Below, piece by piece: positions 2,907 to 61,545 of a stretch of DNA of 64,000 nucleotides. The translations under genes and the position numbers were made by a program. Where the stretch lies: the IMG/VR virus record IMGVR_UViG_3300042447_000416; one strand, given 5' to 3'. Source of the DNA: an uncultured virus (IMG/VR IMGVR_UViG_3300042447_000416) (lineage: Duplodnaviria; Heunggongvirae; Uroviricota; Caudoviricetes). Under the pieces are notes generated by a model that searched no databases, had not been told where the DNA came from, and saw only the letters and a program-made list of their open reading frames with translations. The stretch's first letter is position 1. Each line of letters begins with the position of its first letter.

Positions 2907-2924
2907 ATCAATCTCTCTGTTAGT

Positions 2925-2952: not shown

Positions 2953-2956
2953 AATG

Positions 2957-13583: not shown

Positions 13584-13678
13584 TTTTTAATCCTCTTATC
13601 TAATTTGTCTATAAATAAACCTAATGGGTAGCCAACTAAAAATCCTATTGCTATACCGCTAAGCAAAAACATTTCCAT
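13580..13678 (-). CDS. Small membrane peptide (32 aa)
   Basis: Hand-translated MEMFLLSGIAIGFLVGYPLGLFIDKLDKRIKK*; coupled on both sides. Confidence 0.6.
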   Translation of the reverse strand: MEMFLLSGIAIGFLVGYPLGLFIDKLDKRIKK

Positions 13679-14373: not shown

Positions 14374-14671
14374 TATTATCCTCCCAGCATTTAATTAATT
14401 CTTCTAAAATTGCCCACTCTATTATACCAAGTCGGACTTTGCTTTCTTTACCTATAATAATTTTTAAGGCTGGGTGCATATCTCTATTTACTTTAAATGT
14501 ATCTGTACAGATCTTAGACCAAACTTCTTTATTCAATGTAAATGTAGATCCCGCCTCCTTATAATCAACTAAAAATTGATTCCACTGAGCATCACCTTTT
14601 TGGTAATCTCCTCGCCCGCTATTTTTTTGTGCTTTAGCACTATCTCTTTTTACTTCGGCTCTTTCAGACAT
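14366..14671 (-). CDS. PD-(D/E)XK resolvase-like nuclease
   Basis: NSGRG..KGDA...LVDYKE. Confidence 0.65.
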   Translation of the reverse strand: MSERAEVKRDSAKAQKNSGRGDYQKGDAQWNQFLVDYKEAGSTFTLNKEVWSKICTDTFKVNRDMHPALKIIIGKESKVRLGIIEWAILEELIKCWEDNNA

Positions 14672-14674
14672 TTA

Positions 14675-15520
14675 CTAGCCTTTAACTTCTATAAGGTTAG
14701 ATGGGATAGACAGCTTTATGGTTTGTAAATCTTTTTCTACATAAGATTCTTCTGTATTAACATTATTTAAATTGTCTTGTCCAAGTGTTATGTCGTATTG
14801 TTTTTTCCACTCGATTTCGTCTTTAACATCAGAATCAATAAACGCTCTTAAAAAATACCTATCTGATTTACTAAATGGTTTTACTCCGTGATAAAATGGT
14901 TCTGTTGACGGCATTATAACGGCATCTCCAGGCATAGGCTTATACATGTATGTGTTATTTGATATAGAATCGTATACACAAATTTCCCCTCCGTCATAAT
15001 TATTATTTAAATAAAAATTAACAGTAGCAACGTGCCTCTTTGTTTTTGTTTCCCCAGGTACTGGCAATTCGTCTACATGGTATTCCATGATTAATCCAGA
15101 AGGGTTTACCTTTCCTTGAAAACCTACGTCATATCTAAAAAAATCAATCCAGTATTTTTTGTTTGTATCTTTTAACAATTCCCAATCTTTTATAAATAAG
15201 GGCCATATTCCATTTTCTTTTCCAAACTCATTAAGATAGTCTTTTCTAATAAAATTCATACATTCATTTATTTCTAGTATGTATTCTTTTTCTAGATTGA
15301 GAAATGTATTGGTTCCAGGATCTATAGTATCTAAAAGACTAAAGTCTGCGTCTCTTCTAAATCCTTGACCATACCAGCCTCTCCATTCATTAAAGAAAGA
15401 AATTTCTCTACTGTCCTGCAACAAATCAATTATTTCTTTGCTGTTTTTAAATATGTTTTTATATATTACAATTTGTGGAGCCACTACAATTTTTTTTATA
15501 GAGCTGAAGTCCGTATTCAA
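14675..15520 (-). CDS. 2OG-Fe(II) oxygenase, paralog of 55384-56283
   Basis: YHVD, YDGGEI, PSTEPFYHGVK, RYF; probable TTG start at 15520. Confidence 0.85.
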   Translation of the reverse strand: MNTDFSSIKKIVVAPQIVIYKNIFKNSKEIIDLLQDSREISFFNEWRGWYGQGFRRDADFSLLDTIDPGTNTFLNLEKEYILEINECMNFIRKDYLNEFGKENGIWPLFIKDWELLKDTNKKYWIDFFRYDVGFQGKVNPSGLIMEYHVDELPVPGETKTKRHVATVNFYLNNNYDGGEICVYDSISNNTYMYKPMPGDAVIMPSTEPFYHGVKPFSKSDRYFLRAFIDSDVKDEIEWKKQYDITLGQDNLNNVNTEESYVEKDLQTIKLSIPSNLIEVKG

Positions 15521-15521
15521 T

Positions 15522-15710
15522 CTACCCCACCCTAACTTCGTTTTCATGTCCATCAGGACATTCCCATGCAAGGACCATAGAATCTGGATCCCAAAAAGAT
15601 TCTTCTGCATTCTTATCACACTTAGAACATGGTTTTACTCCATGGATAGACTCTAAGTTTTGTTTAACAACTACCTGTGGTTTATTAATAAACTCGTTAA
15701 GATTTGGCAT
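15522..15710 (-). CDS. Small zinc-ribbon protein
   Basis: CSKC...CPDGH. Confidence 0.65.
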   Translation of the reverse strand: MPNLNEFINKPQVVVKQNLESIHGVKPCSKCDKNAEESFWDPDSMVLAWECPDGHENEVRVG

Positions 15711-16962: not shown

Positions 16963-19900
16963 TTTATTTCCTTTACATTCATAGTTCCATCGTCTAGTTT
17001 TGATAGAACAACCCTACATTTCATTCCCTCACGCATTTTTGCAAGGGTCATTTTATACATAGTTGGAAAAGCAATTGCTCTTGTCAACTCTTTATTTCTA
17101 TTTGACAACACTATGTGGCTCATAGTTTTGCCTGCCTTTGTTACATATGGGGTAAAGTTTACAACTATATATTCGTCTTCTTCTAAGTCATATTCTTTAC
17201 GATATAGGTAATCTACAAACATATCGTTTGATGAGGGGTCTATATCTGAAACCTTTATGTATCTTGCAATTCTATTATCTCCAACAAGAATAAAGTACAT
17301 CTGGCCTACTTCAATTTGTGTTTGCTCATTATGAAAGAGCCCTATTGAACCAGTCTCATCTACAATCTCTACTCTTGCCCAACCTGTTCCACGTTTAATT
17401 CCCTTTACCATTCCAAACATAACAAACGATCCTAGGTCATCAAACTCTTCAATTGGTCTAGCCTGAGCTTTAACTCTTGGGGGAATACCTTCTAAATTAA
17501 ATGTTGGTATACCCAGATACTCATAATAATTATCTTTTTCATTTCCACTTCTAGGATTATCTTTAAACGCTGCAGCACCAATTGCATTAAGTGAACTAAT
17601 TGCTCTACTATTTATACCGCTTCCTTTAGCAGAAGAAATAGAAATAAAATGATTGTAGTCAATATAAGGTCTACTGTCAATAATTTTATTTGCGATGTTA
17701 TCAGATATAAATTTAACTTCAGATAATCCAAATCGAATTGCATTTTCTTGAAGTGAAAAATCAAGACCTGATTCATTAATGTGAGGCAGCAGTACCTTTA
17801 ATCCTAAGCGTTTAGCCTCAATTAAATATTCCGTCCTAGCATCTTTATCATTTTCGTTTTTAAGAATTGAAAACATGAACTCAAGCGGATAATAAAACTT
17901 AAGCCAAGCAGTATAATAACTAAGCATAGAGTAAGCAACGGCATGAGAACGATTAAAAGAATAACCAGCATGCGCTTCAAAATCGTGCCAGAGCGCCTCT
18001 GCCTTTTTCTTAGTAATGTGTTTTGAAGCCCCAATAACAAACCTATCTTTGAACTGGTCAAATTCTTTTGCATCTTTTTTCTTTCCAATAATCTTGCGGA
18101 CCTTATCAGCCTCTGCCCAAGTCATACCGCCCAAGTGTACGCATGCCTGCATAACTTGTTCTTGATATATGATAACACCATAAGTGTTCTCGGTAAACGG
18201 CTTCATAATTGTATGCATATAATCTACAGCCTCATTGCCGTGTTTACGTTTAATATATGCAGCACCAACTGTATTCATGGCTCCTGGCCTTACAAGTGCA
18301 TTAGATGCGACTAGGTCCTCAAACTTATCTGTTCCCATTTTAATAAGAAGATTAGTGTATGGTGTTGCTTCAGCTTGGAATACACCCTTAGTAAATCCTT
18401 CACTAAGCATTTTATAAACTTCTGGATCATCAAGCGTCATGTTCGATAAAATGATATCTTTGCCTGTCCTAGATTTAATTGATTTAAGAGTATCAGAAAT
18501 TACAGACAAGGTCTTAAGTCCTAGTGCATCTAGTTTGATAAGACCTATATCTGCAACCGTATCCATATCGTATGCAACGACAGGAATTCTTCCTGATACT
18601 TTGTCTTGTGCGTCTTCTCTTGATTCAACAGGAGCATAATTTCTCAAATCATCTTTTGCCACTACAACACCTGCAGCGTGTACTCCAACGGATCTAATTC
18701 TTCCACGCAATCTGTCTGCAAGCCAAACTACTTCTGGGTATTTAACTCTAAATTCTTTTGTATTCGGGGAAGAAATAAAGTCTTCAAAAGTGTCAATTGA
18801 TTTCATTGCACGATTAACTTCTTGAAGTGGGACCATAAAAATTCTTGCTGCGTCTCTAATTACACCCTTATCTTTAAAGTAAGTGTATGTAGAAATAGAC
18901 GCAACGTGTTTAAACTTTTTCTTTAAATAATCTTTAACCTCTTTACGACGACGGTCTTCAAAATCAGTATCAATATCTGGAAAGTCATTACGTTCTGGAT
19001 TAATAAAACGGAAGAACAATAAATCGTACTCTATTGGGTCCACATCAGTAATTCCTAATGTGTAACAAACTAAAGATCCAGCTGCTGAACCACGGCCAGG
19101 ACCGACCATAATATTATTTTCTTTAGCCCAGTTAATCATATCTGCTACCACTAAAAAATATGATGCAAAAGATTTGTTTCTAATTACTTCTAATTCTTCC
19201 ATTAATCTTTGCTCATACACATCATTGCCTAGCCAGCCGTCTGTTAAACGTAGCCTTTCTAGGCCCTGGAAGGCCATCTCAGCCAGTTTCTGGTCGGCAT
19301 TGGTCTTGGGTACAGGGAGTAGGTCTAAACCACTGTTAAAATCGTATTCTTCAATTTTGTCAGATATCTCAATAGTATTATCATATATATCTGTACGAGT
19401 AATATCAGCCTTATTAAAATCTGCTTCAATCTCTTCTCTAGACTGAATAAACAAATTATAGTCTTGGAAAGAAATTCTACGGTCTGGGTATAGATAGTTA
19501 AATCTTTCCATCATGTCTTTAATGTTGCGTGACATTTCAAAGTCTGAGTCTTTGTCAATTTTAGGAGATGTGGATAAGATAAGTAGTGCTTCTTCTAGTA
19601 TTCTATCTTCTTCTTTGGCAAAGTGGGCATCTCCTGTTGCTACCGCCTTAATGCCAAGTTCATCTGCAAGATCTAGTAGCTTTGCATTTATTTCTGGCGG
19701 GTTGTGAGACTGTACCTCAACATAAAAGTCTTCAGAAAAAGTTTTCTTAAAATTTTGTAAAAGAAGTTTGGCCTCTCCAAATTCTCCTTTTTCAATAGCC
19801 TTAGACATAAGACCATTGAGACATCCAGAAAGTACAATGATACCTTCACTATATTCATTTAATATCTCCCTATCAATACGTGGTTTATGATAGAAACCTT

Positions 19901-51034: not shown

Positions 51035-52840
51035 CTAGACGTCAAAAGATCTTGTGAAGTAGGCTGTGTTGTCTAGGCCAGTAGCACTTTCTGAGAAAGT
51101 TATACCTGGGTCTTGTACGGTAAATGAATTTTCTGAGCAATACAGCTTATAATTCTTTAGAGCCTCTGGGGCCGTAAATGGGGTTTCATAAAATGCTAAA
51201 TTGCTATAGGTATTAGATCCACCATATTCCGACCCGCTCTGGTTCTGATTTAATTTAATATTTGTAGCGCCTGCGTTTAGTACTATTAAAATGTGATGAG
51301 ATACTCCGCTTAATAAAAATTGGGATACGTTGGTGGATGTAGTTCTATTTACTCCATTTACATATATTGCACTAATTCCATTTTTTGTTATTACTCCGCT
51401 ATTTGTCCAGCTTAGAGAAGCTGAGGCTGATGAGAATAAAATATTTTTTCCTTCTCTTGGAGTAAAAAACATCTCTATTGTTCTTGGATGTATTGGGAGG
51501 TCTACTGAAAAGCCGTAACCAGATTGCATAGTCAATCCATTATATTTATTTTGCATTCTTACTGGGTAGTTATAATAACCCAATGAATAGTCGTAGTCTG
51601 AATATATTTTGCCTCCACCATTATCAGAATAAAAATCTTTATTTGAATATAAGTCAATTTCTAATTTATCAAAGAAAGGGAGGTCAAAAGATGAATCTAG
51701 GGTAGTCATTGTTACACGAATGTCTAGTATTGGACCAGATAGGTCTTCATTTTTATTATAATATGGAAGAGCAGAATTGTTTTTACATACTACCCATGGC
51801 TGCCCTGGAACTTTAGCTTCTACTAAAATATTTTGTACATCTTGGCCATAAGATATTCTAGAAGAAACAATGTTTTCTGGGTTTGGCACATAAAGTCTTT
51901 CTTCAAATACAAAGGTTTTTGTTTCTACTAATTCTGTTTGGGCAAATTCTATTCTTTTATAAGTTGGATTATAATATGCATCTCCCGAAACTATAGAATC
52001 TAAAGATTTAGATCCAGGATATCTATATGAGACTGCTGGTTTTAAAAATACAGAATTTAATGAAAATAATATACCGTTTTTAGAATAAACAATTTGTGAA
52101 TATTTAGTCTCTTTATACCCAGCTAAATAATGTGCTAAAATTTTTGTGTCTTCTATTTCATAATTATATACTGCTGCTGAATCTACTAAAAATCTTTTAC
52201 CAGTATTTGCTGGACCAATTTTAGGAGTCATAACTGCATTTGTAAATTTAAAGCCTGCCGTAATAAATTTTTCAGAAGCCAGAGATCCGTTTATGTACAA
52301 AGATATTTTATCTTTAGAAAATATTCCCACTATATGCATTACTTTGGTCTTGGCCACTTTAGACCATACCTTTTCTTGATTTGTGCACTTAAATATTACA
52401 TTTTCATTTTTATAAAATAGGCCTATATTATTTGTTGCATCTCCAATGATTAAGTATTCTGATAGGTCAGAAGGATCTGGACTAAACCATATTTCAAATG
52501 CGAATGGATTGTCTGGGCTTTTAGAATTAGCAATCCCTAAAGCTTTTAAAGATAGATCAACGTTTTCATTAATTTCAGTTCCTCTAATACCAGATCCTAC
52601 TATTGGAATAACTTCCATATCCGAAGCATCTATCGCATAGCCTTCCATAGAATTTCCAGAATAGTCTACAATTGGAAGTCCGCTAACTGCTGCATATGAA
52701 ATTCCATTATCTTTTAAATCCTGATAGGTAGAATATAATGAAGTTAAGTTACTATATAGACCAGTCTCTCCAGAACGAACCTCATCTAACAAAAAAAATG
52801 CAAGTGGGTTATCTTTTAAGACAGTATATTTATATGACAT
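51035..52840 (-). CDS. LamG/concanavalin-A-like virion protein
   Basis: VLKDNPLAFFLLDE, FEIWF, HIVG, LYING, AVYN...ILAHY. Confidence 0.8.
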   Translation of the reverse strand: MSYKYTVLKDNPLAFFLLDEVRSGETGLYSNLTSLYSTYQDLKDNGISYAAVSGLPIVDYSGNSMEGYAIDASDMEVIPIVGSGIRGTEINENVDLSLKALGIANSKSPDNPFAFEIWFSPDPSDLSEYLIIGDATNNIGLFYKNENVIFKCTNQEKVWSKVAKTKVMHIVGIFSKDKISLYINGSLASEKFITAGFKFTNAVMTPKIGPANTGKRFLVDSAAVYNYEIEDTKILAHYLAGYKETKYSQIVYSKNGILFSLNSVFLKPAVSYRYPGSKSLDSIVSGDAYYNPTYKRIEFAQTELVETKTFVFEERLYVPNPENIVSSRISYGQDVQNILVEAKVPGQPWVVCKNNSALPYYNKNEDLSGPILDIRVTMTTLDSSFDLPFFDKLEIDLYSNKDFYSDNGGGKIYSDYDYSLGYYNYPVRMQNKYNGLTMQSGYGFSVDLPIHPRTIEMFFTPREGKNILFSSASASLSWTNSGVITKNGISAIYVNGVNRTTSTNVSQFLLSGVSHHILIVLNAGATNIKLNQNQSGSEYGGSNTYSNLAFYETPFTAPEALKNYKLYCSENSFTVQDPGITFSESATGLDNTAYFTRSFDV

Positions 52841-52843
52841 GTC

Positions 52844-53956
52844 TTACTTCTCTTCTAGGGCTTTGACTCTCGCTGTAAGCTCTTGTACTGCTTTAATTAA
52901 TGGTGATATAAATTGATCGTACCTAAGTCCTTGCATAGAATCTTCTTGTGACATATCCATTTTTACCCAACCAGCAAAATCCCCGACACCAGATTCATCT
53001 AAGGCTTGTTTTACTTCTTGGGCAATAAGTCCATAATGTGTTCTTGATCCAGGAATAGAAACTATGTCTCCTTCGACAACTTCTTTGCCGCCTTCAACGA
53101 ACTTATATTTTACGGGATTTAAATTATTTATAAAGTCAAGACCAAGCGGGGATGTAGCAATATCAGTTTTTAATCTTTCATCTGAAGTATTAATGGTTCC
53201 AGTATTAGAGTATATTGTTTTCCAAAATCTATTTGATGAAACTCCATTTGGTACATCTGTTGGCTGACCTATTGAATAAAGATTGTTTGCAAAAGGATAC
53301 CAGTTAGAATTTACTCCGTATCCAGAAGATGTTGGTATGTTTAAACTTATTGTTGTTGGAATTGGGTCAATTGTTGCGCTCTCTCCAGGAATACCTTGAG
53401 GTCCAGTTGCGCCAGTTGCGCCAGTTGCGCCTCTTGGTATTGTAAATGAAAAAATAGCATTTGCTGTTGTTCCAGTATTTGTTACCGAAGCATTTGTTCC
53501 AGCATTGCCAGTTGTGGTTGTTCCAACAGCTATTGTTGCTGGGCCTTGTGGACCTACTGGTCCTTGTATGCCTTGTGGACCTTGAGGGAGAACTAAATTT
53601 AATGTTTGTGAAGGGCTGGTTCCAGTTATTGTTGCACTAGCAGAACCTCCCTCAACAACCGTTCCAATATTTAAAACATTGGATGGGCCAGGGCCACCAA
53701 TAATTCCATCAACACCTCTTGGTAATGTTAAATTTAATATAGCATTAGATGCAGTTCCTACATTAACAACTGATGCTGGTGTAGCCGCACTAACAGTAGT
53801 TACTGTACCCACCGCTAACGTGCCTGAAGGGCCCTGTGGGCCTGGATTAGCGGCTATAAAGGTTGCAATGTCGGCACCAAGGTTTCCAAGGTCTCTAGGG
53901 ACGTCTGGGGTGTCTGTATAGTCTGGAAATCTCCAGCCATTTACTCCTGTACTCAT
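52844..53956 (-). CDS. Fibre protein with short collagen-like (Gly-X-Y) segments and S74 chaperone
   Basis: GPQGIQGPVGPQGP, GATGATGATGPQGIPG; SDERLK...HYGLIAQEV. Confidence 0.85.
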   Translation of the reverse strand: MSTGVNGWRFPDYTDTPDVPRDLGNLGADIATFIAANPGPQGPSGTLAVGTVTTVSAATPASVVNVGTASNAILNLTLPRGVDGIIGGPGPSNVLNIGTVVEGGSASATITGTSPSQTLNLVLPQGPQGIQGPVGPQGPATIAVGTTTTGNAGTNASVTNTGTTANAIFSFTIPRGATGATGATGPQGIPGESATIDPIPTTISLNIPTSSGYGVNSNWYPFANNLYSIGQPTDVPNGVSSNRFWKTIYSNTGTINTSDERLKTDIATSPLGLDFINNLNPVKYKFVEGGKEVVEGDIVSIPGSRTHYGLIAQEVKQALDESGVGDFAGWVKMDMSQEDSMQGLRYDQFISPLIKAVQELTARVKALEEK

Positions 53957-53976
53957 TTTTTTATTATACCACCTAT

Positions 53977-54627
53977 CTATTTAATATATATGTGTGCTGG
54001 GCTCATGTATCTAATGCCAGACACAATAGGCTTTACTTCGTGAATATATGGCTCTTGTGATGGGAACATTATTAGGCTTCCAGCTTTTGGTTTTATAGTA
54101 ACATTGTGATTTGGGAAACTAATTTCTCCACCCTCATAATCATCATTAACATATGCCACTAAAGAAAATGCTAAATCCTTGTTGCCATCCTGTCCATCAA
54201 AATGTGGGCCCATTGATTGTCCTTCATTCCAGGCTTTTATTGGTATGCGATCAAGACTTAAATTATATTTATTTCTATCTAATTTTCTAGCGTCTAAATA
54301 TCTATCAGTACACATTTGAAAGGCCATCAAAAAACTATTGGCAATATAAAGAGTTTTTTTATCTACTATATCTGATCCAGTAGTTGTTTTTAACGCAGAT
54401 CTATTTATTGTTTTTGTTTTACCATATACCAGACTAGAATCATTGCTTGCCGTCCAATTTTCCCATTTGGATATCCTGGAATACGACTCTGGCTCTTCGT
54501 CTATTTTGTCTATAAAATCTTTTAAATGTTCTGGAAAGCTTAATGCATTTTCCCAGTACCAGATATCTGTTCCCAAAATTTTAAGATCAAACATTATAAA
54601 CTGCTTAAACTCTACATTATTTTGCAT
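53977..54627 (-). CDS. 2OG-Fe(II) oxygenase (P4H-like)
   Basis: HFD, YEGGEI, HEVK, RY. Confidence 0.88.
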   Translation of the reverse strand: MQNNVEFKQFIMFDLKILGTDIWYWENALSFPEHLKDFIDKIDEEPESYSRISKWENWTASNDSSLVYGKTKTINRSALKTTTGSDIVDKKTLYIANSFLMAFQMCTDRYLDARKLDRNKYNLSLDRIPIKAWNEGQSMGPHFDGQDGNKDLAFSLVAYVNDDYEGGEISFPNHNVTIKPKAGSLIMFPSQEPYIHEVKPIVSGIRYMSPAHIYIK

Positions 54628-54628
54628 G

Positions 54629-55381
54629 TTAGCCCTCTACTTCTGATGCTGGATACACTTCTCCACGGGGGGTTATTCTTAATCCTTTATTTCTATAGTC
54701 TTCCCACTCAATAGCCTCATCTGCTTGCATTGCTCTAACCTCAGCAAGCTCTGCCGCCCAAGCATCTCTAACTTCTTGCGGGTAATCACTTTCTTCTCTA
54801 TCGTCCCAGAATGATCCTAGAGTATATCTAATAGATTTTTTAACTGTGGTAACTTCGTGCATGTTATGGAATCCTCCAGCAAATGTTACTAGAGTTCCAG
54901 TTTTTGGAACAATTGTTAATCCATGCTTAAAGTTTAAAATACCATCTTCAAAGTCATCGTTTAAATAAAGAAAGGTTGCATATCTACTTCTAGTAAATGC
55001 TCCTGAAACTCCATCATTAGAAGTATTGTCTGAGTGCATATTTGCAAAAGCTCCTGGTGCCCATCTTTGAGAGTGCCAGCTTATCTGCGACATTTGTGCT
55101 GAATCTTTTCCAGCCATATCTGCAGTAGCATCTATAACTCTTTGTCTAAGATCTACAAAAAAATCTCCTGGTAAGCCACAGGCAATTGTGTCTGGGTCAT
55201 TTAGCTCTGGAGTGCCTGATGAGTATGACTCATAAAATGAAATTGGCATCCACTTTAATTGTTCTTTTTCCATCTTAATAGCTAGAACATCAATAATTGA
55301 TTTACATTCATCTGGGGTTAAAAAATTGTCATATTGCACAATATCTGGCTTGTGTCTAGTTATAACCATATCTCTTTCCAT
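54629..55381 (-). CDS. 2OG-Fe(II) oxygenase (P4H-like)
   Basis: NFLTPDEC, HSD, YLNDDF, HEV, RY. Confidence 0.88.
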   Translation of the reverse strand: MERDMVITRHKPDIVQYDNFLTPDECKSIIDVLAIKMEKEQLKWMPISFYESYSSGTPELNDPDTIACGLPGDFFVDLRQRVIDATADMAGKDSAQMSQISWHSQRWAPGAFANMHSDNTSNDGVSGAFTRSRYATFLYLNDDFEDGILNFKHGLTIVPKTGTLVTFAGGFHNMHEVTTVKKSIRYTLGSFWDDREESDYPQEVRDAWAAELAEVRAMQADEAIEWEDYRNKGLRITPRGEVYPASEVEG

Positions 55382-55383
55382 AA

Positions 55384-56283
55384 TTACATCATTCCTTTTT
55401 CTGCTTTAGCATCAGATGGGACACCAAATTCTTTAGCATCAAATGGGACACCAAATTGTTTTTCATCATATGGGACACCAAATTGTTTTTCAACATGTTC
55501 CTCATATGTAACTGGAACTCCGTCATTAAAATAAACCATGTTTCTTTTATCATCGTATTCAATTCTTTGTTGCTCCATTTTTGCCCACTTGTAAGCACCA
55601 AATTTTCTTTGGTTTGCAAGCCATTCTTCTGTGCCATTATGAGGAGTCATTATAAAGTTTCTAACAAAAAATTTCTCATTGCTGTTAATTGTTTTTACCC
55701 CATGATAGTATGGCTCTGTTGATGGAAATACTAAAATATCTCCAGCCTTTGGCTTATGATTAATAAATTGCCCATCAATATAAAACTCTATATCTCCGCC
55801 ATCGTAATCATCATTAATATACATTGTGCAGGTAATTGAAAATTTCTCCCCAGGCATATCTTTTTGTGATGTTATGTGATCTGTATGATATTGCATTGTA
55901 AGCTTACTTTTAAGATTATCAACTCCTGCATGATATTTAGAATAAGATGATCCGCTAAAACGCCAGCCTTCTGGCAATTTTATATTGTGTCTTTCTATGT
56001 AGTCCGCTATAACCTTACTATATGCCGATTCAACTTCTTCAACGAATGCCTTTTCTTTAATAAACATTTCTGTAGATTGAATTTCTGCAGAAACTTCTCT
56101 CATATCTTTTTTCTGAGTATACGTTCCAAAATGGGCCCAAGGATCCCAGGTCTTTAAAAAATACTTTCCTTCTGAAGTTTTTTCTGAAGAATTCATGACT
56201 TCATATAGTTGTGCTGGATCTTTTAAAACATTTCTATAAACATCAACTTTTGGGTACAGTTCTATATAGTCTAATTGGCTCAT
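55384..56283 (-). CDS. 2OG-Fe(II) oxygenase (P4H-like)
   Basis: HTD, YDGGDI, HGVK, KFF. Confidence 0.88.
   Translation of the reverse strand: MSQLDYIELYPKVDVYRNVLKDPAQLYEVMNSSEKTSEGKYFLKTWDPWAHFGTYTQKKDMREVSAEIQSTEMFIKEKAFVEEVESAYSKVIADYIERHNIKLPEGWRFSGSSYSKYHAGVDNLKSKLTMQYHTDHITSQKDMPGEKFSITCTMYINDDYDGGDIEFYIDGQFINHKPKAGDILVFPSTEPYYHGVKTINSNEKFFVRNFIMTPHNGTEEWLANQRKFGAYKWAKMEQQRIEYDDKRNMVYFNDGVPVTYEEHVEKQFGVPYDEKQFGVPFDAKEFGVPSDAKAEKGMM
55405..55492. repeat. 27-bp tandem repeat, about 3 copies, encoding (E/A)K(Q/E)FGVPxD
   Basis: atgggacaccaaatt core seen three times at 27-bp spacing. Confidence 0.9.
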
Positions 56284-56957
56284 GGTTGTTTTTCTCCCGT
56301 ATGTTTTTGTATCGTCCAAAAGAATGGAGATGTAAATCTATTTCCAGAGATTACTGGACGTACTCCATGTGTATAATTCATATCACCTGGAAAAAAATAT
56401 GCTGCTCCTGCAACTGGCTGAAATTCAATTCCGTGCTGTGGGAAATATAATTCTCCGCCTTCATAGTCATCGTTAAAATAAAATAAGCCAGCCAAATCAT
56501 ACCAAGGAAAATCATTTGCTCTTCCTTTTTCTGGGCCAGAATGAAATTCTTTATCTGCATGCGGCTCTTGTCTGGCACCAACAGGCCATCTAACAATTGC
56601 TGGACCAGTTTCTTTTGCATCAACATTAAAAAATGCATCTACTTCTATTTTAAGTCTTGCTATCATGCTATAAATTAATTCTAATATCGATGGGTCTGAC
56701 GCCATTAAAGAATTGTAGGTGCAAACTCTATTTTCCCAAACTGTGTGGTCATATAAAACTAGGCCATCGGCATCTCTATGGGTTTCTGTTATGTCCCAAA
56801 TTTTATTATTAAGGGAAAAGTCCATCAATCTTTTACGCTCTTCTATTGTAAGGAAATCTTTTATTTCTACTATGTTATTTATGGAATTACCAAAAAATCC
56901 AGACGGAGTAATAGATTTTGGCTTTTGATCTTCTGTCCATTGGTTTGCTAGCTTCAT
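56280..56957 (-). CDS. 2OG-Fe(II) oxygenase (P4H-like)
   Basis: HAD, YEGGEL, HGV, RF. Confidence 0.88.
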   Translation of the reverse strand: MKLANQWTEDQKPKSITPSGFFGNSINNIVEIKDFLTIEERKRLMDFSLNNKIWDITETHRDADGLVLYDHTVWENRVCTYNSLMASDPSILELIYSMIARLKIEVDAFFNVDAKETGPAIVRWPVGARQEPHADKEFHSGPEKGRANDFPWYDLAGLFYFNDDYEGGELYFPQHGIEFQPVAGAAYFFPGDMNYTHGVRPVISGNRFTSPFFWTIQKHTGEKQP

Positions 56958-57682
56958 TTATCTATTATATCATTTCCCTTGTTTAATTCATGATTGACTT
57001 TAAGCCTAATAGCTTTTACTTGATGACCGCCTAGGACATTTTTAAGGTGATCTACAGCATCTCTATAAAAATTAGACCAAATTGCTTTTCTGTTTAAATC
57101 GTAAATAACATTAGAATACTCGTTAGAGTCAAATTTAGGGTCTGGCAAAGACTCTACTTTATCAAAATTTATTTCTGAGTTTTGTAAAGCCTCTAAATCT
57201 ATTGGTAGTATAGCAATTATTGGTGTTCCTGCTTTTATGGTAATAACTTCGTTTGGTTTAGTTATCATCCAGGCACATGGCAATTCTCCTCTAAAAAATG
57301 ATGTACTCATTAAGGTTGTAAAAGGAACGGCACCGTCAATGAATAAATTTGGAACTGGCATAGATAGAAGACTTAAATTTTCTTCAGTAGAAAACATTAG
57401 GCCCGTATTAAAACTTACTGTTCCATTAGCTCTACCAGAATAAGCATACTTTTCACCAGACAAAATTTTAACGTGATCTGGAGTGCTGTCTGTTACGCCA
57501 TCCCATATAAAAGATATATCTTCTGGAAAAGATATTCCCCAGCCAAGCTGGTTAGTGAGTCCTACTGGAAAACATTTATATGCATGAGATTCCCAAGTAT
57601 TATCCATCCAATCTCTTTTAATTGAAAGAGGAAAAACTTCTCCGTAACCATTTCTTATTGTATAGGCTTTAATTTTATGCAT
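56954..57682 (-). CDS. DUF6065-like protein
   Basis: RDWMD, AYKCFPVGLTNQLGW, AGTPI. Confidence 0.7.
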   Translation of the reverse strand: MHKIKAYTIRNGYGEVFPLSIKRDWMDNTWESHAYKCFPVGLTNQLGWGISFPEDISFIWDGVTDSTPDHVKILSGEKYAYSGRANGTVSFNTGLMFSTEENLSLLSMPVPNLFIDGAVPFTTLMSTSFFRGELPCAWMITKPNEVITIKAGTPIIAILPIDLEALQNSEINFDKVESLPDPKFDSNEYSNVIYDLNRKAIWSNFYRDAVDHLKNVLGGHQVKAIRLKVNHELNKGNDIIDK

Positions 57683-58388
57683 ACGAGTTTTTGCCAGTTT
57701 TTTCATCTTCTACTAACCATCTGGCTCGTGCTTCAAAAAATTCTTGTCTGTGAGCATGATCATTATAATCAAGCATTGTTACAATAGAAAACTTCATGCC
57801 ATCTTCTACTGGCATTGCTCTATGCGAAAATAGATAGGTAGATGGGAAAATATATAAATCGCCAGCTCTTGGCTTAATGTTTAGACCTAATTTAGGAAAA
57901 AATAAATTGCCTCCTGCATAATCGTCATTTACATAAGCAACTAATGATACTGTGGCACTATATGAAAATCCGTGGTCGGCATGCTCTTGGAAGTGTTGTC
58001 CTTTGCCGTATCTAATACAGTTCATAACTTCCCAATAATTCATCTTTACACTATATTTAGTACAATAATCTTGAACTGCTACATCCTGTGCTTTTTTTAA
58101 ATCAGACCATAAATCTGCAACTAGTTTCTGGGTTTCATTGACTGGATTAATTATCTCTCCAATTTTAATATCTTCACAGTCTCTATATGATGGTCTTTTT
58201 TCACTATACCCAACAAAACCAAATGTCCAACTGTATCTGGAATCTGCCTCTTTATCAGCAGAATTTCCTATTGCGTTTAATCTATTAATAACGTCTAAAT
58301 CTTTTTTAATTACATCTCTGTATACCCACACGCCTGGGAAAAGCTCTTCCTTTGAAGAAAATCCATATTGGTCATTTATAGTAGTCAT
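57675..58388 (-). CDS. 2OG-Fe(II) oxygenase (P4H-like), probably leaderless
   Basis: RYGKGQHFQEHAD, YAGGNL, HRA, KFS; TGATACAAT-6 nt-ATG. Confidence 0.88.
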   Translation of the reverse strand: MTTINDQYGFSSKEELFPGVWVYRDVIKKDLDVINRLNAIGNSADKEADSRYSWTFGFVGYSEKRPSYRDCEDIKIGEIINPVNETQKLVADLWSDLKKAQDVAVQDYCTKYSVKMNYWEVMNCIRYGKGQHFQEHADHGFSYSATVSLVAYVNDDYAGGNLFFPKLGLNIKPRAGDLYIFPSTYLFSHRAMPVEDGMKFSIVTMLDYNDHAHRQEFFEARARWLVEDEKTGKNSYA

Positions 58389-58427
58389 GCCTTTATTGTA
58401 TCATTTTGAATTTACAAATACAATAGC

Positions 58428-58462
58428 AAAAAGAGGGGGGCATTGTGTGCCACCCCTCTTTT
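58428..58462. terminator. Intrinsic terminator
   Basis: AAAAGAGGGG...CCCCTCTTTT. Confidence 0.75.
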
Positions 58463-58470
58463 ATAGATAT

Positions 58471-59676
58471 TTAAGCTATTACTAGGAAGGAATTAACGAT
58501 AAACCATGGATTTGGAGATGTTCTAACATCGTACACGGTAGATTCTGTTTCACTCTTTTCAACTGAGGTTACTGGAGTTCCTTGGACTAGTCCATTTGAA
58601 TCTACTCCTATGATTATTTCTCCTATCTCAATTTCTCCTGCATTCTTATAGGTAATACCATTTGAGGTTTTTACAAATAACGGCTGGGTTTCTGAGTAGT
58701 CTTTACCTCTGTAATTAAATCCAATTAGCTTTCCAGTTTTTTCTGTTATTGAAATAACTTCTGAATTTGTAAGCTTAACTGTTGATTCTAAATGTCCAGA
58801 TGTTTTATTTGCGGTTATAGATTCAAGATTAATATTAGAGTTATCAACTGTTATTACTTGATCTCCAATTTTAATATCTTTAGCTTTTACCCATCCAGTA
58901 TTGGTGAAAATAACTGATTCTGGTGATAAACACTTACCCTTAAATCCTGGTGGGGAAAAGAACCCTGGTGGGGCAAAGAACCCTGGTGGGGCAAAGAACC
59001 CTGGTGGGGCAAAGAACCCTGGTGGGGCAAAGAACCCTGGTGGAAAGAACGGTGGAAAGAACGGTGGAAAGAACGGTGCTTGAGTTGTAATTTCCGCTGT
59101 ATTTGCTGAAGCTGCTGACCGACCATTAGCATTATCTGCATAAACATTATAATACTGAGATGTATTAGCAGTATCATTGATGGTTATACTTAGGGATGCT
59201 GTATTTCCATTTGTTCCATCATTACCTGCAACATAGTAGTTAGTTATTGCGGATCCACCATTTGCTGGCTCTGTCCAAGTAATTGTGTTTTGGTTAACTC
59301 CTGCAGTTGCGATTGGGCTTTGTGGAGCTTGAGGTACGGTTGTTGCAGTAATGCTATTTGAGGCAGCAGATGCTGCACCAGTTCCTACTGCATTTGTTCC
59401 CGTTACCGTAAATGTATATGCTGTATTTGATTGTAAACCAGTTACAGATATTGGAGAAGATGCTCCTGAAGCAGTATACGATCCTGGAGAGGATGTTACT
59501 GTAAAGGATGTAGCAGCAGGTGAATTTGCTGGCAAAGAGAACGTTACGTCGGCCCGTCCATTGTTATATGCACGACCAGATGGTACGTTTGTTGCTGTTA
59601 CTGACTCTGGTGCCCGTGGCTCCAAAAAGTCATTTGATGCCTGTGCCTTTTTACCGAATTTCTTACCTACTGCCAT
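58471..59676 (-). CDS. Two FN3 domains, Pro/Phe-rich repeat and C-terminal Hint domain
   Basis: GLQSNTAYTFTV, W..P..GGSAIT.Y; (PPGFFA)n; CLSPESVIFT...IKIGDQV...VYDVRT...FIVN. Confidence 0.85.
   Translation of the reverse strand: MAVGKKFGKKAQASNDFLEPRAPESVTATNVPSGRAYNNGRADVTFSLPANSPAATSFTVTSSPGSYTASGASSPISVTGLQSNTAYTFTVTGTNAVGTGAASAASNSITATTVPQAPQSPIATAGVNQNTITWTEPANGGSAITNYYVAGNDGTNGNTASLSITINDTANTSQYYNVYADNANGRSAASANTAEITTQAPFFPPFFPPFFPPGFFAPPGFFAPPGFFAPPGFFAPPGFFSPPGFKGKCLSPESVIFTNTGWVKAKDIKIGDQVITVDNSNINLESITANKTSGHLESTVKLTNSEVISITEKTGKLIGFNYRGKDYSETQPLFVKTSNGITYKNAGEIEIGEIIIGVDSNGLVQGTPVTSVEKSETESTVYDVRTSPNPWFIVNSFLVIA
58946..59078. repeat. Coding tandem repeat of 18-bp and 12-bp units
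   Basis: ccctggtggggcaaagaa x4 exact plus a variant; ggtggaaagaac x3. Confidence 0.95.
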
Positions 59677-59709
59677 TTTGAATCTCCTTTTTAACTATTT
59701 AAATTTGTA

Positions 59710-61545
59710 TTACGCCATCAAGTCGCCGTAGACAACCCATGTATTTGCTGCTCTCTTAAAGAGAGTACAAGATGACCAGGTTGTACGAAGCTTTAGGCCA
59801 GGTGTTGCGTTAACTGTAACTGTTCCTGATACTGGGGCAATTGTTACTTGTCCAGCTCCAGTTTGAAGAATATCAATAGATGTTCCGATTGGGAAGTCTA
59901 GAGTTGCGTCTTCTGGTATTGTTAAGGTTAGAGGTGATCCTGATCCCATTTCGATTAGATCATCTCTTTCAGTTAGTGATGAAAGTGTATATGATGCTGT
60001 TTTTGCAACGATTGGTGTTAAAGAATCTACCTTTAATCCAAGGCTGGTTGTTACTGATGCTGCAAAGTTTGCGTCATCTCCAAGTGCTTGAGCAAGTTCA
60101 TCAAGTGTATTCATTGCTGCTGGTGCACCAGATATAAGTGCGCTTACCTGTGATGTTGCGTCTGCAATTGCTTCAGATTTTGCTGTTGCGATTGCTGAAG
60201 ACTGTGCTGTTGATACTGGCTTATTAGCATCAGAAGTATTGTCAACATTTCCAAGTCCAAGTGTTGCTGGTGTTACTGCTGCAACCTCTGACTTAAGTGC
60301 TAGAAGTGCTGTATCTGCAATTCCATGAACATTTGTAGTGTCTGCTTCATGGGCTGAAAGAGCGGTAGCTGCTGCTGTAATTTGTGTTTGAACTGATGAT
60401 GTAACTCCATCTAGGTATCCAATTTCTGTTGAAGAAACTGTACCAATTGATGTTGTACTTGGAAGAGTTACTGTACCAGTAAATGTTGGTGAGGCCAAAT
60501 CTGATTTAGCTGCAAGAGATGCACCTAGTCCAGAAATTTTGTCTTGGTGAATTGCTGCAGTAGCACTTACATGATCATTTGTAATTTGAAGATCTGCAAT
60601 TTTTTCTGCAGTTATTGCATCAACTGCAATTTTATCTGCAGTTACTGCACCATTTAGAATTTTTACTGTAGATATTGCATCGGTTGCTAAATCTGCTGTT
60701 TCTACAGAGCCTGCAGGAAGTGTTACTGATCCTGTTACTGTTAAGTTAGTTAAGCCGATATCTGTTGCTGTAAGGTTTCTAAGCTCAAGATCATCTAGGC
60801 CTCCTTGGCTAAAATTAATTGTAGTGGTTGGTGCATCGGTTACTCCTGTAAAGAGTTTCCATTTATTAGCAGATGCATCTCTTGCAAATCCTGTGTGATT
60901 AGCAACTCCATCATTGTGTTTAGCTACAAATCCTAGATCTAAAGCATTTCCTGCGTTGGTTGATGCTAATGCAATTAGTGGATCTTCTGTTGTAAAGTTA
61001 GCTGTATCTAATGTTACAGTTGTTCCATTAACAAAAAGATTTCCAGCTAATGTTAAATTTTCTCCTGATATGCTTCCACTTGTTGAAATATCTGTTGCTA
61101 GTCCTGTTAGCTTTAATTGTGCCTCTGGAACCTTAATGTTTCCATCAAGTGAAGCAACACCATTTGCTGATCCACGATCTGAATTCTCTAAGTATGTGCT
61201 TGCTGTTGAATTTGTAAGTCCAGTTACTGCTGCATCAACATAGGCTACTGTTGCTACTACTGCTGAATCTACAGAAATTGTAATTGTATTTGCGCCATCA
61301 TTATAAGTCTTTGTTAAACCTGCACCCATTGTAAGTGCTGTATTGATTGCGTCTTGTGAAATTTCTCCAATTTCAGGTGCATCTGCTGCTACGTAAGAAA
61401 GGGAATTCCATGCGGTGGATCCATCTCCAACTTTAATTTTTCTAGTGTTTGTTTCAACGCCTAGCTCTCCTGCTGCAAGTATTGGATTTACTCCAGACCA
61501 GTCTGTTGCTGATCCTCTTCGAACTTGAATTCTTACTGTTGACAT
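59710..61545 (-). CDS. Fibre-like virion protein with Mtd_N-like N-terminus
   Basis: RIQVRRG...W...NPILAAGELGVET...KVGDG..AWNSL; GLGNVDNTSD.NKP; LDELAQAL.DD. Confidence 0.8.
   Translation of the reverse strand: MSTVRIQVRRGSATDWSGVNPILAAGELGVETNTRKIKVGDGSTAWNSLSYVAADAPEIGEISQDAINTALTMGAGLTKTYNDGANTITISVDSAVVATVAYVDAAVTGLTNSTASTYLENSDRGSANGVASLDGNIKVPEAQLKLTGLATDISTSGSISGENLTLAGNLFVNGTTVTLDTANFTTEDPLIALASTNAGNALDLGFVAKHNDGVANHTGFARDASANKWKLFTGVTDAPTTTINFSQGGLDDLELRNLTATDIGLTNLTVTGSVTLPAGSVETADLATDAISTVKILNGAVTADKIAVDAITAEKIADLQITNDHVSATAAIHQDKISGLGASLAAKSDLASPTFTGTVTLPSTTSIGTVSSTEIGYLDGVTSSVQTQITAAATALSAHEADTTNVHGIADTALLALKSEVAAVTPATLGLGNVDNTSDANKPVSTAQSSAIATAKSEAIADATSQVSALISGAPAAMNTLDELAQALGDDANFAASVTTSLGLKVDSLTPIVAKTASYTLSSLTERDDLIEMGSGSPLTLTIPEDATLDFPIGTSIDILQTGAGQVTIAPVSGTVTVNATPGLKLRTTWSSCTLFKRAANTWVVYGDLMA

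Follow-up and report, generated by a model that had tools for sequence, protein, structure and literature searches.

What do the oxygenases encoded in the fibre region of this phage act on? The window, the whole stretch of 64,000 nucleotides that was analysed, comes from a complete 110-kb lake phage genome in which a WhiB gene is present; the host is probably an actinobacterium. Its - strand carries, in order, a protein with a Pro- and Phe-rich tail (PRE), five P4H-type 2OG-Fe(II) oxygenases together with a DUF6065 protein, a collagen-like fibre and then a LamG protein, all before the portal gene. A preliminary description interpreted this block as a repeat substrate accompanied by its tailoring enzymes, an interpretation that is partly supported here. 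The term 'RiPP-like' that it applied to the layout holds as an analogy only, PRE being a 401-aa fibre-region protein with no leader or recognition element shown.

The oxygenase array and its setting

The genes and the one signal discussed in this section are as follows.

59710..61545, - strand: 611-aa fibre protein with an Mtd_N domain (PF18454, 1e-14); context gene
58471..59676, - strand: PRE, 401-aa FN3-FN3/Pro-Phe tract/Hint protein (open reading frame; Pfam fn3 above cut-off)
58437..58456, - strand: terminator-like G+C hairpin and T run, between the PRE stop codon and the first oxygenase
57675..58388, - strand: oxygenase 1, 237 aa, P4H-type 2OG-Fe(II) oxygenase (PF13640, 7.4e-13; HAD...H...K intact)
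56954..57706, - strand: DUF6065 protein, 250 aa, dUTPase-like fold, invariant Cys45 (PF19541, 5e-29; structure model)
56280..56957, - strand: oxygenase 2, 225 aa (PF13640, 2.3e-7; HAD...H...R intact)
55384..56319, - strand: oxygenase 3, 311 aa (PF13640, 8e-9; HTD...H...K intact; C-terminal triple repeat, KQFGVPxDxK)
54629..55381, - strand: oxygenase 4, 250 aa (PF13640, 2.8e-7; HSD...H...R intact)
53977..54627, - strand: oxygenase 5, 216 aa (PF13640, 1.8e-11; HFD...H...R intact)
52844..53956, - strand: collagen-like fibre, 370 aa, with a C-terminal Peptidase_S74 self-cleaving chaperone domain (PF13884, 8.5e-14; tail-fibre PHROGs)
51035..52840, - strand: 601-aa LamG-domain protein (PF13385, 2.7e-12), between the collagen-like fibre and the portal block; context gene

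All the open reading frames listed in the preliminary description are present on the - strand at the positions claimed, and the block does lie within the virion gene region, with Mtd_N fibre genes before it and portal, prohead protease and capsid genes after it. Almost all relatives, too, have the Mtd_N fibre gene immediately before PRE. From oxygenase 1 through the LamG gene, neighbouring genes overlap or are separated by gaps of at most 20 bases, inside a structural operon that reaches the portal gene. The terminator proposed between PRE and the enzymes was found as a terminator-like hairpin (58456-58437), whereas the separate promoter was not recovered: the scan lists no - strand site there, and the best candidate in this gap, read by eye, is TTGTAT-17-TACAAT, with 8 of 12 positions matched. 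In relatives, an unvalidated scan places a hairpin downstream of PRE in 18 of 39 lineages, its sequence varying between them; in 9 of the 39, PRE lies within 16 bases of the next gene or overlaps it.

The description of the array as five divergent 2OG-Fe(II) oxygenases is confirmed, since each scores above the PF13640 cut-off, all five keep the HxD...H...K/R residues and their pairwise identity is 18-29%. Among solved structures, the profile of oxygenase 1 orthologs matches the Bacillus anthracis P4H best (3itq/5hv0, 3.6e-7), followed by the collagen lysyl hydroxylase LH3. The array enzymes belong to protein-hydroxylase families, an assignment that supports protein substrates.

The gene among the enzymes is indeed DUF6065-like (PF19541, E 5e-29), and its dUTPase-like fold and its remote kinship with Syn9 gp43 (hhalign 96%, E 4e-9) are new here. 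The best Foldseek match of the structure model (pLDDT 92) is the dUTPase 8hrv (E 6e-5), and in VIA-align, with a top Z of 11.1, all 13 chains at Z of at least 8 (ranks 1-13) are dUTPases or dUTPase-fold viral proteins. With this fold, the protein is not itself an oxygenase.

The Pro/Phe tract and the Hint domain of PRE

PRE consists of four parts.

59341..59598, - strand: first FN3 domain, about residues 27-112, bounds approximate (Pfam fn3 at residues 42-107, E 1.7e-8; titin and contactin FN3 alignments)
59080..59340, - strand: second FN3 domain, about residues 113-199, bounds approximate (phmmer alignments to titin FN3 units, residues 76-208)
58933..59079, - strand: Pro/Phe tract, 49 residues, 200-248 (translation; DNA tandem arrays)
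58474..58932, - strand: C-terminal Hint/bacterial-intein-like domain, residues 249-401, from Cys249 to the end ...NSFLVIA (profile match and alignment)

The two FN3 domains previously proposed are both recovered, the second because the titin FN3 alignments extend over residues 76-208. As had also been described, the repeat tract is fused directly to the Hint domain, which begins at Cys249. Its sequence, APFFPPFFPPFFPPGFF(APPGFF)x4 SPPGFKGK (residues 200-248), is laid out as APFF PPFF PPFF PPGFF (APPGFF)x4 SPPGF KGK and includes six Pro-Pro-Gly motifs. The underlying DNA repeats in tandem almost perfectly (18 bp x5.4, 98%, 58946-59043), with a second array at 59039-59078 (12 bp x3.3, 100%). PRE has no PHROG family and no tblastn match in cultured phages; its relatives were found in 196 of 212 pattern-matched IMG/VR stretches, and the best 80 of the 196 were kept. 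A second tract-Hint protein, of 730 aa and with a tail similar to that of PRE, is encoded just outside the window.

Searched on its own, the Hint domain sequence does not reach the Pfam cut-offs (Intein_splicing 1.7e-4, Hint_2 3.7e-3). When a profile of 20 diverse homologous tails was compared with solved structures, the bacterial intein-like (BIL) domain 2lwy of Clostridium thermocellum was matched first (E 7.3e-8) and inteins thereafter. Cleavage just before the first Cys, as suggested earlier, is plausible because all 50 homologous tails have Cys (44) or Ser (6) at position 1, and the window's domain keeps Cys1; less in keeping with that suggestion, its block-B His has become Gln (SxxQ), and it ends in ...VIA with neither a terminal His-Asn nor a C-extein. 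These two departures would also fit a domain that no longer cleaves and forms a structural or binding tip on a Pro/Phe stalk, swappable with the other tips of relatives, which is possible but doubtful. Of the 50 tails, 32 carry Gln and 9 carry Glu where block B would have His, the window's own tail being one of them; the Hint is absent from many PRE relatives, and a short ...FGSRFIRAY tip or a small Cys-rich domain forms the end of relatives instead. However, the position-1 nucleophile persists throughout homologous subtypes whose mutual identity is only 13-28%, the block-B His is dispensable in some natural inteins, and Hedgehog-type Hints need no terminal Asn for N-terminal cleavage.

In the preferred reading the Hint cleaves; it shares its position-1 nucleophile with BIL domains and Hedgehog-type Hints. 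Cleavage rather than splicing is expected, because no nucleophile follows the domain. BIL domains occur on variable surface-type proteins. In contrast to BIL and Hedgehog Hints, that of PRE ends the protein, has SxxQ instead of TxxH, lacks His-Asn and is preceded by a Pro/Phe tract, within a protein of a phage fibre region; it also has no sterol-recognition extension. By analogy, it may resemble the Peptidase_S74 domain of endosialidase-type phage fibres, which caps the C-terminus of the fibre protein and cleaves itself off, although S74, which uses a Ser-Lys dyad, is unrelated in fold and chemistry and a Hint stands in its place here. The S74 chaperone can serve as a working model for a removable C-terminal domain on a fibre-region protein.

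Co-variation of tract style and enzyme set

Scans that took PRE and DUF6065 as seeds gave 45 lineages. PRE with its FN3 part is found in 39 of them; two more have a tract-bearing open reading frame upstream of the array that is cut off by the contig end, three have too little upstream DNA to judge, and one has a second-site locus only. Between PRE and the portal block or locus end there is at least one P4H-like gene in 38 of the 39 lineages, the exception being L018, which has none in that interval. The order of tract protein and then enzymes is a widely conserved layout in related contigs.

Tract style and enzyme set match in all 42 thinned lineages with complete islands. PP-rich tracts accompany an array of 4-8 PF13640 genes (26 of 26), F-x-V-F-G or TPFGF tracts accompany one to three copies of a family termed XB (10 of 10), and FGAFG tracts accompany a DUF6065-like gene only (6 of 6). 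The fold of family XB is that of an oxygenase (model pLDDT 84.5), with 3bvc/2rg4 as the best matches (E 3e-7) and PHD2 next. Oxygenase-fold genes thus adjoin F-x-V-F-G tracts even though these are only 4-9% Pro, so the residue targeted may be other than Pro. Roughly 5-8 kb upstream lies a second tract protein, whose tract style agrees with that of PRE within one genome; in 4 of 25 lineages examined, an oxygenase of its own comes within the next three genes. Complete genomes of the PP type have 10, 12, 11, 8 and 7 P4H-like matches and those of the non-PP type 4, 4, 6 and 6, so that the island array is the part that differs.

On a tree of the PRE FN3 part, which belongs to the same gene as the tract, tract style and enzyme set change seven times, always together. 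The best tree gives five PP/non-PP and three FGAFG/FxVFG contrasts; the well-supported branches force one independent contrast of the former kind (sign test p = 1) and two of the latter (p = 0.5). An earlier, smaller lineage set formed a single clade. The match might require no functional link, because the genes are adjacent and could be exchanged as one DNA cassette.

Candidate substrates and related systems

Such cassette linkage, combined with shared descent, would account for the match if the oxygenases were accessory cargo in a fibre/portal gap that tolerates insertions, directed at host proteins, small molecules or secondary metabolites; this is a reading that we consider unlikely, though it deserves attention. 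Well-supported independent contrasts number only three, and a terminator-like hairpin follows PRE. The island of relatives also holds genes for B12 ribonucleotide reductase, cobalamin adenosyltransferase, a short-chain dehydrogenase, glutathione peroxidase, a luciferase-like monooxygenase and a radical-SAM protein. The window's genome has 5-6 further P4H-like genes, dispersed between those for AdoMet decarboxylase, sulfotransferase, peroxidase and replication, as well as a second DUF6065-oxygenase pair next to recA, where no tract protein is close by. The island cargo and the scattered genes are signs of a general accessory-gene site. Against this reading, the classes match in 42 of 42 lineages and all seven changes coincide on the best tree; one lineage (L210, six genes on the contig) keeps the array even after its relocation upstream of the fibre genes; the array, with its overlapping genes, is embedded in a late structural operon; and the closest solved relatives act on proteins.

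The tandem dioxygenase array of Synechococcus phage Syn9 (gp41-gp54; Iyer, Abhiman, de Souza and Aravind, Nucleic Acids Res 2010, PMC2938197) bears on both sides of this question. In the passages of that paper on the array, synthesis of secondary metabolites, rather than modification of virion proteins, is proposed, which favours accessory cargo; yet the Syn9 array, like the present one, directly follows fibre genes. Both phages encode several tandem, mutually divergent double-stranded beta-helix dioxygenases. An array protein is described there with a dUTPase-like fold and an invariant Cys, both of which the DUF6065 protein shares, and Syn9 gp43 is probably the protein meant (Iyer et al., 2010, PMC2938197). 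The fold and the kinship with gp43 therefore tie the present block to the tandem arrays described in 2010. The two differ in enzyme content: besides two tryptophan halogenases and a JmjC protein, the enzymes of Syn9 are mostly of the PF13759 type, whereas the array here is entirely PF13640. No halogenase appeared in a Pfam scan of the open reading frames of the window's genome (at least 90 aa outside the block), and no Pro/Phe tract in the 13 Syn9 proteins scanned (gp32-gp40, gp43, gp44, gp46 and gp47); the lack of a tract there counts against the tract as substrate.

The collagen-segment fibre noted after the enzymes is present, as a 370-aa protein with collagen-like triplets and Peptidase_S74. 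It is a possible second substrate; that it or other fibres of the block would be the main one, as in collagen prolyl hydroxylation, with PRE a mere neighbour, seems improbable. The fibre, which has Gly-X-Y stretches, is encoded 20 bases downstream of oxygenase 5, the best solved relative of oxygenase 1 is the B. anthracis P4H, which accepts collagen-like peptides, and 16 of the 19 complete PP-type islands contain the fibre. The remaining three (L136, L145 and L024), however, keep 4-7 oxygenases without it. Moreover, its Pro residues are mostly at the X position, and it shows just one or two X-Pro-Gly sites, where the PRE tract has six Pro-Pro-Gly; some 13 triplets seem few for five divergent enzymes; and a fibre substrate offers no account of an enzyme set that tracks tract style.

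Passages of Iyer et al. (2010, PMC2938197) also predict bacterial operons in which a beta-hydroxylase, a phytanoyl-CoA hydroxylase-like enzyme, a sulfotransferase and a PAPS synthetase would modify collagen-like/tail-collar proteins, a prediction that favours the fibre as substrate. The idea in common is hydroxylation followed by sulfation of low-complexity or fibre-type proteins encoded alongside the enzymes; those operons, being cellular, differ from the present block and are still predictions, whereas the candidate substrate here is a phage Pro/Phe tract with a Hint cap (Iyer et al., 2010, PMC2938197). In line with the predicted operons, an Asp/Asn beta-hydroxylase and a sulfotransferase directly follow PRE in relatives, one of which also has a PF11397 GlcNAc transferase; these additional enzymes likewise point to protein substrates. 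The window's genome encodes an APS-kinase-like protein and a sulfotransferase.

A virus-encoded P4H-type oxygenase beside virus-encoded Pro-rich repeat peptides has a parallel in Chlorella virus PBCV-1, whose prolyl 4-hydroxylase Eriksson et al. reportedly described in 1999 along with the virus's own Pro-rich repeats. The PBCV-1 enzyme (5c5t) is among the fold matches of family XB. Unlike the PBCV-1 and B. anthracis enzymes, those here are five divergent members of one array, in a phage of a bacterial host, and are known from sequence; the PBCV-1 repeat is Pro-Ala-Pro-Lys, and the candidate substrate here is Pro-Pro-x-Phe-Phe.

The explanation preferred here, that the PRE tract is hydroxylated by the five downstream oxygenases, with the Hint as a removable cap and the DUF6065 protein as an accessory, is given an even chance as a whole. 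PRE would be a late protein of the fibre block, probably positioned on the virion, whose two FN3 domains would carry the low-complexity Pro/Phe tail and whose C-terminal Hint would be removable. Cys249 would probably attack the Lys248-Cys249 bond, upon which the Hint would leave and mature PRE would end in ...PPGFKGK. The five different P4H-type enzymes would hydroxylate this tail, presumably at Pro, in the infected cell before assembly, and would probably also act on the tail of the 730-aa tract-Hint protein outside the window. The Pro/Phe tail is thus a testable candidate target for a common phage enzyme class.

Gene order and architecture of the tract protein

The preliminary description had placed a protein of two FN3 domains, a Pro/Phe tract and a Hint domain (PRE, the candidate substrate) together with five oxygenases, a DUF6065 gene and a collagen-like fibre, and this block is present as described. 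The virus record comprises 109,968 bases with a completeness rating of 100%, of which the window covers 25398-89397, and the genes of the whole region lie on the - strand.

Genes of the block and its flanks in transcription order (window coordinates, strand, feature)
59710-61545, -, 611-aa fibre protein with an Mtd_N domain, first in transcription order
58471-59676, -, PRE, 401 aa, after the Mtd_N fibre gene
82 bases, spacer between PRE and oxygenase 1
57675-58388, -, oxygenase 1 (PF13640)
56954-57706, -, DUF6065 gene (PF19541)
56280-56957, -, oxygenase 2 (PF13640)
55384-56319, -, oxygenase 3 (PF13640)
54629-55381, -, oxygenase 4 (PF13640)
53977-54627, -, oxygenase 5 (PF13640)
52844-53956, -, 370-aa collagen-like fibre with a Peptidase_S74 domain
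after the collagen-like fibre, -, LamG protein, then a 112-aa protein, then portal, prohead protease and capsid genes

From oxygenase 1 through the LamG gene, neighbours overlap or are separated by gaps of at most 20 bases, which puts the array within the late structural operon. The terminator reported between PRE and the enzymes was recovered as a hairpin with a T run (58456-58437, -), whereas no separate promoter before oxygenase 1 passed the scan threshold. G+C hairpins of varied sequence follow PRE in 18 of 39 lineages in an unvalidated scan of the best 80 of 196 and best 80 of 211 confirmed stretches; 12 lineages with a gap of more than 25 bases have none, and in nine others the gap is at most 16 bases or the genes overlap. 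Such a hairpin would be consistent with attenuation, in which structural protein would be made in quantity and enzyme sparingly.

The phage encodes WhiB, which suggests an actinobacterial host, as excerpts of one study tie WhiB to Actinobacteria (PMC10611076). Its prohead protease is 45% identical to counterparts in ~130-kb Streptomyces phages. Near-identical DNA occurs in 18 lake-water metagenome runs. In a lake metatranscriptome (two runs, one study), contigs ~95% identical to PRE span 58487-59853 and cover the array only in patches; these contigs can neither rank genes nor show transcript ends, DNA carry-over is possible, and the thin enzyme cover carries no weight. Among 50,697 cultured-phage records, tblastn found no relatives of PRE and, at 1e-3, none of DUF6065, and the sole blastn match of the whole block is 54 bases of cyanophage P-SSP2.

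One FN3 unit of PRE scores above the Pfam cut-off and the second was recognized from titin alignments. The tract that follows (residues 200-248) reads APFFPPFFPPFFPPGFF(APPGFF)x4SPPGFKGK, and its DNA consists of near-perfect tandem arrays of 18-bp and 12-bp units. In PRE relatives, a Phe-rich tract always comes after the FN3 part, and the C-terminal tip varies: it may be uncapped (ending ...PPTFGSRFIRAY), a small Cys-rich domain, or a Hint domain of several subtypes. Judged from these sequences, the tips appear interchangeable. In five homologs (L020, L058, L066, L071 and L072), a 40-60-residue domain with 6-10 Cys directly follows the tract in place of the Hint.

The Hint domain occupies residues 249-401 and, as a single sequence, falls under the Pfam cut-offs. 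A profile built from 20 diverse homologous tails matched the BIL domain 2lwy best among solved structures (7.3e-8), followed by at least 10 inteins, and this similarity places the PRE C-terminus, as a predicted member, in the Hint superfamily near BIL domains. An intein was considered and rejected: the window's Hint ends in ...NSFLVIA, with neither a terminal His-Asn nor a C-extein starting with Cys, Ser or Thr, and the subtypes that keep His-Asn continue with Lys, Arg or Tyr and only a few residues, none a nucleophile. Hedgehog-type Hog proteins carry a sterol- or adduct-recognition region after the Hint, whereas in PRE the Hint alignment extends to the last residue. The domain is consequently a BIL/Hedgehog-style module for which cleavage at the N-terminal junction is the most that could be expected. 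Position 1 is Cys249 in the window and, among 50 distinct tails from 24 lineages, Cys in 44 and Ser in 6; this invariant nucleophile argues for cleavage. Block B calls for caution, since Thr-x-x-His is replaced by Ser-Glu-Thr-Gln in the window, and the His position holds His in 9 of the 50 tails, Gln in 32 (the window's protein among these) and Glu in 9. On balance, a self-removing cap is somewhat favoured. Literature searches on bacterial intein-like or Hint domains in phage tail fibers returned nothing on a PRE-type system; the phiCbK paper describes inteins in terminase and ribonucleotide reductase.

A second tract-Hint protein of 730 aa is encoded ~520 bases past the window's end (genome 89918-92110, -; loci L155 and L158:921-3110), after another Mtd_N fibre gene. 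Its C-terminus comprises a Cys-rich stretch, a Pro/Phe tract and a Hint 50-55% identical to that of the window. In relatives this protein has 725-1142 aa, sometimes with its own oxygenase next. It was detected in 16 of 25 lineages examined, with the tract style of the same genome's PRE except in L012, and an oxygenase of its own lies within three genes after it in 4 of the 25. Many lineages also have a conserved pair of small ORFs (76 and 79 aa; genome 89410-89882, -) after the second tract-Hint protein.

Oxygenases, DUF6065 and the Syn9-type array

All five oxygenases are intact P4H-like enzymes, as had been proposed, scoring 31.9-49.7 bits against the PF13640 cut-off of 27 with every catalytic residue present. 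Their iron-binding motifs are HAD, HAD, HTD, HSD and HFD, each with a distal His and, in 5/5, a Lys or Arg ten residues after it; pairwise identity is 18-29%. The ortholog profile of oxygenase 1 matched Bacillus anthracis prolyl 4-hydroxylase (3itq/5hv0) at 3.6e-7, the next match being LH3 collagen lysyl hydroxylase at ~5e-3. Peptidyl-proline hydroxylation is thus a candidate activity of the array, by similarity to the B. anthracis enzyme only. Oxygenase 3 ends in three 11-residue units, KQFGVPYDE, KQFGVPFDA and KEFGVPSDA (55384-55500, -), and its orthologs range from 271 to 311 aa.

The window's genome holds 10 PF13640 matches, plus an eleventh from a separate scan, and only five of these are array members. 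Complete genomes of non-PP relatives contain 4, 4, 6 and 6 such genes, versus 10, 12, 11, 8 and 7 in PP-type genomes; these counts indicate a background of about five P4H-like genes, the island array being the varying part. Searches on prolyl 4-hydroxylase or hydroxyproline in phage tail fibers returned no phage tract proteins in the titles and abstract openings of the papers listed, and those on 2OG-Fe oxygenases in actinobacterial or freshwater WhiB phages returned nothing on a PRE-type system. Excerpts of a Baltic Sea virome study (PMC9301287) term viral prolyl 4-hydroxylase "cryptic" in its role.

The DUF6065 product scores 101.9 bits against the PF19541 cut-off of 26.6, and its family has an invariant Cys. 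The predicted model (pLDDT 92) has 8hrv as its best Foldseek match (E 6e-5, TM 0.64 on target), and VIA-align superposes 121 residues at Z 11.1 and rmsd 4.8. All 13 chains with Z of at least 8 are dUTPases or dUTPase-fold viral proteins; rows with Z of at least 6 are mostly dUTPases and dCTP deaminases with a few viral proteins, after which Z drops to 4.0 or less. According to this model, the fold is that of the dUTPase/dCTP deaminase superfamily. Identity to dUTPases is 10-16%, and phmmer found no match among solved dUTPases. A hidden oxygenase was rejected, as hhalign against the oxygenase alignment gave 0.2% and the predicted fold is dUTPase-like. No paper was found under the name DUF6065.

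Beside recA, in the replication module (window 13678-15619, -), the phage has another DUF6065-like gene (231 aa, Pfam 8e-22) paired with a 314-aa P4H-like oxygenase, and no Pro/Phe tract protein occurs near this pair. The XA family is a distant DUF6065 relative (hhalign 81%). By-eye counts in non-PP lineages found an XA gene after PRE in 11 of 12 viewed cases with a Hint cap and none in 7 of 7 where PRE ends right after the tract (loci compared: L028, L064, L186, L191, L197 and L201 versus L017, L018, L022, L166, L168, L171, L172 and L205). PP-type lineages show no such pattern.

Excerpts of an earlier survey describe ten dioxygenases clustered in tandem in cyanophage Syn9 (Iyer et al., 2010, PMC2938197). 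The window resembles it in having tandem divergent dioxygenases, five in a row at 18-29% identity. Both arrays also include a protein with a dUTPase fold and a conserved Cys, the window's predicted counterpart being DUF6065. Syn9 gp43 is remotely related to DUF6065 (hhalign 96%, E 4e-9, 165 columns), a kinship missed by Pfam at E 0.01, and the Syn9 array (gp41-gp54) directly follows fibre genes gp32-gp39. This kinship and the shared position after fibre genes make the block a variant of a known but unexplained phage array type, with DUF6065 as its common dUTPase-fold accessory. The two differ in that both tryptophan halogenases are found in Syn9, whereas no PF04820 match occurs among the window and genome proteins scanned. 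A Pro/Phe tract was absent from the 13 Syn9 proteins scanned (gp32-gp40, gp43, gp44, gp46 and gp47). Between the fibre genes and the array, Syn9 gp36 is 35% Gly; in the stretch NC_008296 18000-48000 (L160), gp36 lies at 10856-11806 and gp43 at 18055-18843.

Co-variation of tract and enzymes

Scans seeded with PRE and DUF6065 gave 153 loci (from the best 80 of 196 and best 80 of 211 confirmed stretches), which fall into 45 lineages. Within this set, 38 of 39 lineages with an FN3-bearing PRE have at least one P4H-like gene downstream, counted between PRE and the portal block or locus end, in agreement with the expected co-occurrence; the exception is L018. In two more lineages, a tract-bearing ORF that runs off the contig end precedes the array; the remainder are three with less than 1.2 kb upstream and one second-site locus.

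In this first pass, five Pro-poor lineages have 0-2 island PF13640 genes and 34 PP-rich lineages have 3-8. The Pro-poor group forms a single clade in the FN3-part tree and so provides one independent contrast. A tempting reading, that Pro-poor lineages are without oxygenases, was discarded: genes of ~200 aa (the XB family) adjoin PRE in 4 of the 5, and their model has a predicted oxygenase fold (pLDDT 84.5; best 3bvc/2rg4, E 3e-7, TM 0.65; then PHD2). Pfam gave nothing useful for XB even at E 5, and its oxygenase fold is known from the model alone. The idea that oxygenase presence tracks Pro content failed likewise among non-PP lineages, where F-x-V-F-G tracts at 4-9% Pro keep XB genes; the modified residue need not, then, be proline.

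Because the first set gave one independent pair, a second pass was started from a Pro-poor relative. This third scan (best 80 of 186) brought the collection to 84 distinct PRE proteins and 49 complete islands, of which 42 were kept after thinning; 35 incomplete islands and 7 near-duplicates were left out. Across the 42 lineages, PP-rich tracts come with a PF13640 array (26/26), F-x-V-F-G or TPFGF tracts with XB and 0-2 PF13640 genes (10/10), and FGAFG tracts with XA only (6/6). The array of the PP-type lineage L210 has six genes on the contig and, instead of lying downstream, precedes the fibre genes.

In the best tree, which was built from the FN3 part of PRE and hence from the same gene as the tract, tract and enzyme class each switch seven times, always jointly. 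Branches with SH-aLRT of at least 95 force one PP/non-PP pair and two FGAFG/FxVFG pairs, against five and three in the best tree; all contrast pairs are concordant, in counts too few to reach significance. The pattern is true, and few well-supported independent events lie beneath it. Since tract and enzymes are adjacent, exchange of a single tract-plus-enzyme cassette would give the same pattern.

Candidate substrates and a possible tailoring pathway

The preliminary interpretation stands in part: the layout and the co-variation pattern support it, and the RiPP label is at most an analogy. A RiPP precursor is a short peptide with a leader, whereas the candidate substrate here has 401 aa and two FN3 domains.

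Relatives' islands also hold B12 ribonucleotide reductase, cobalamin adenosyltransferase, short-chain dehydrogenase, glutathione peroxidase, luciferase-like monooxygenase, methyltransferases and a radical-SAM/SPASM enzyme. These genes indicate that the island is also a general accessory-gene site. In L024, L139, L142 and L146, the close next gene after PRE codes for a sulfotransferase and the one behind it for an Asp/Asn beta-hydroxylase. A GlcNAc transferase of PF11397, a family that Pfam describes by the enzyme acting on hydroxylated Skp1, is found in one relative, and the window's genome carries genes for an APS-kinase-like protein and a sulfotransferase. PRE overlaps the next gene or lies within 16 bases of it in 9 of 39 lineages (best 80 of 196 and best 80 of 211). 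Together, the array inside the late operon, this close spacing, the accompanying sulfotransferase, beta-hydroxylase, GlcNAc transferase and APS-kinase-like genes and the position of the Syn9 array favour a protein of the fibre block as substrate.

Among the fibre-block proteins, the collagen-like fibre is a weaker candidate than the tract: of 19 PP-type complete islands, 3 lack it, and its X-Pro-Gly sites are few. An 878-aa "extensin-like" protein was rejected as an extra substrate (its Pfam score is 34 bits where the cut-off is 105, and its repeat unit is VDTEP, as (VDTEP)n). It spans window 3-1601 and upstream sequence (genome 24362-26998, -) and contains a hydrophobic segment at the N-terminus, an FN3-like part and ~14 VDTEP copies. 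The PRE tract is the best available candidate substrate of the oxygenases, and the chances that it is one are evenly balanced.

The phage's redox and tailoring toolkit is unusually rich. Besides the two sulfation-type genes, it includes a 687-aa haem peroxidase-family protein (PF00141), glutathione peroxidase, a radical-SAM/SPASM enzyme, AdoMet decarboxylase and two TylF-type methyltransferases (sites of the set: window 2145-2954; genome 6043-6618, 10123-12186, 7352-7810, 14553-15554 and 4352-4756).

In its fullest form, the proposal is a dedicated multi-enzyme pathway that would chemically modify the low-complexity tail carried by a virion appendage. The oxygenase set would be matched to the repeat chemistry of the tail, and relatives' tails might additionally be sulfated or glycosylated. 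The Hint cap would then turn the tail end into a thioester, resolved by hydrolysis or by covalent attachment to another molecule, and the resulting fibre tip, modified and sticky, would serve adsorption. That all these steps hold together is improbable.

Few "auxiliary" genes of aquatic phages are commoner than those for P4H-type 2OG oxygenases, and although tandem arrays have been seen in cyanophages since 2010, we know of no substrate for them. Pro/Phe tracts such as (PPGFFA)n offer a concrete, synthesisable substrate candidate, and relatives with other tract styles and other enzyme sets provide natural controls. If the link holds, it would give the DUF6065/Syn9 gp43 family a context, place the Hint among the self-removing caps known from phage fibres, and mean that bacteriophage virion proteins undergo enzymatic post-translational tailoring.
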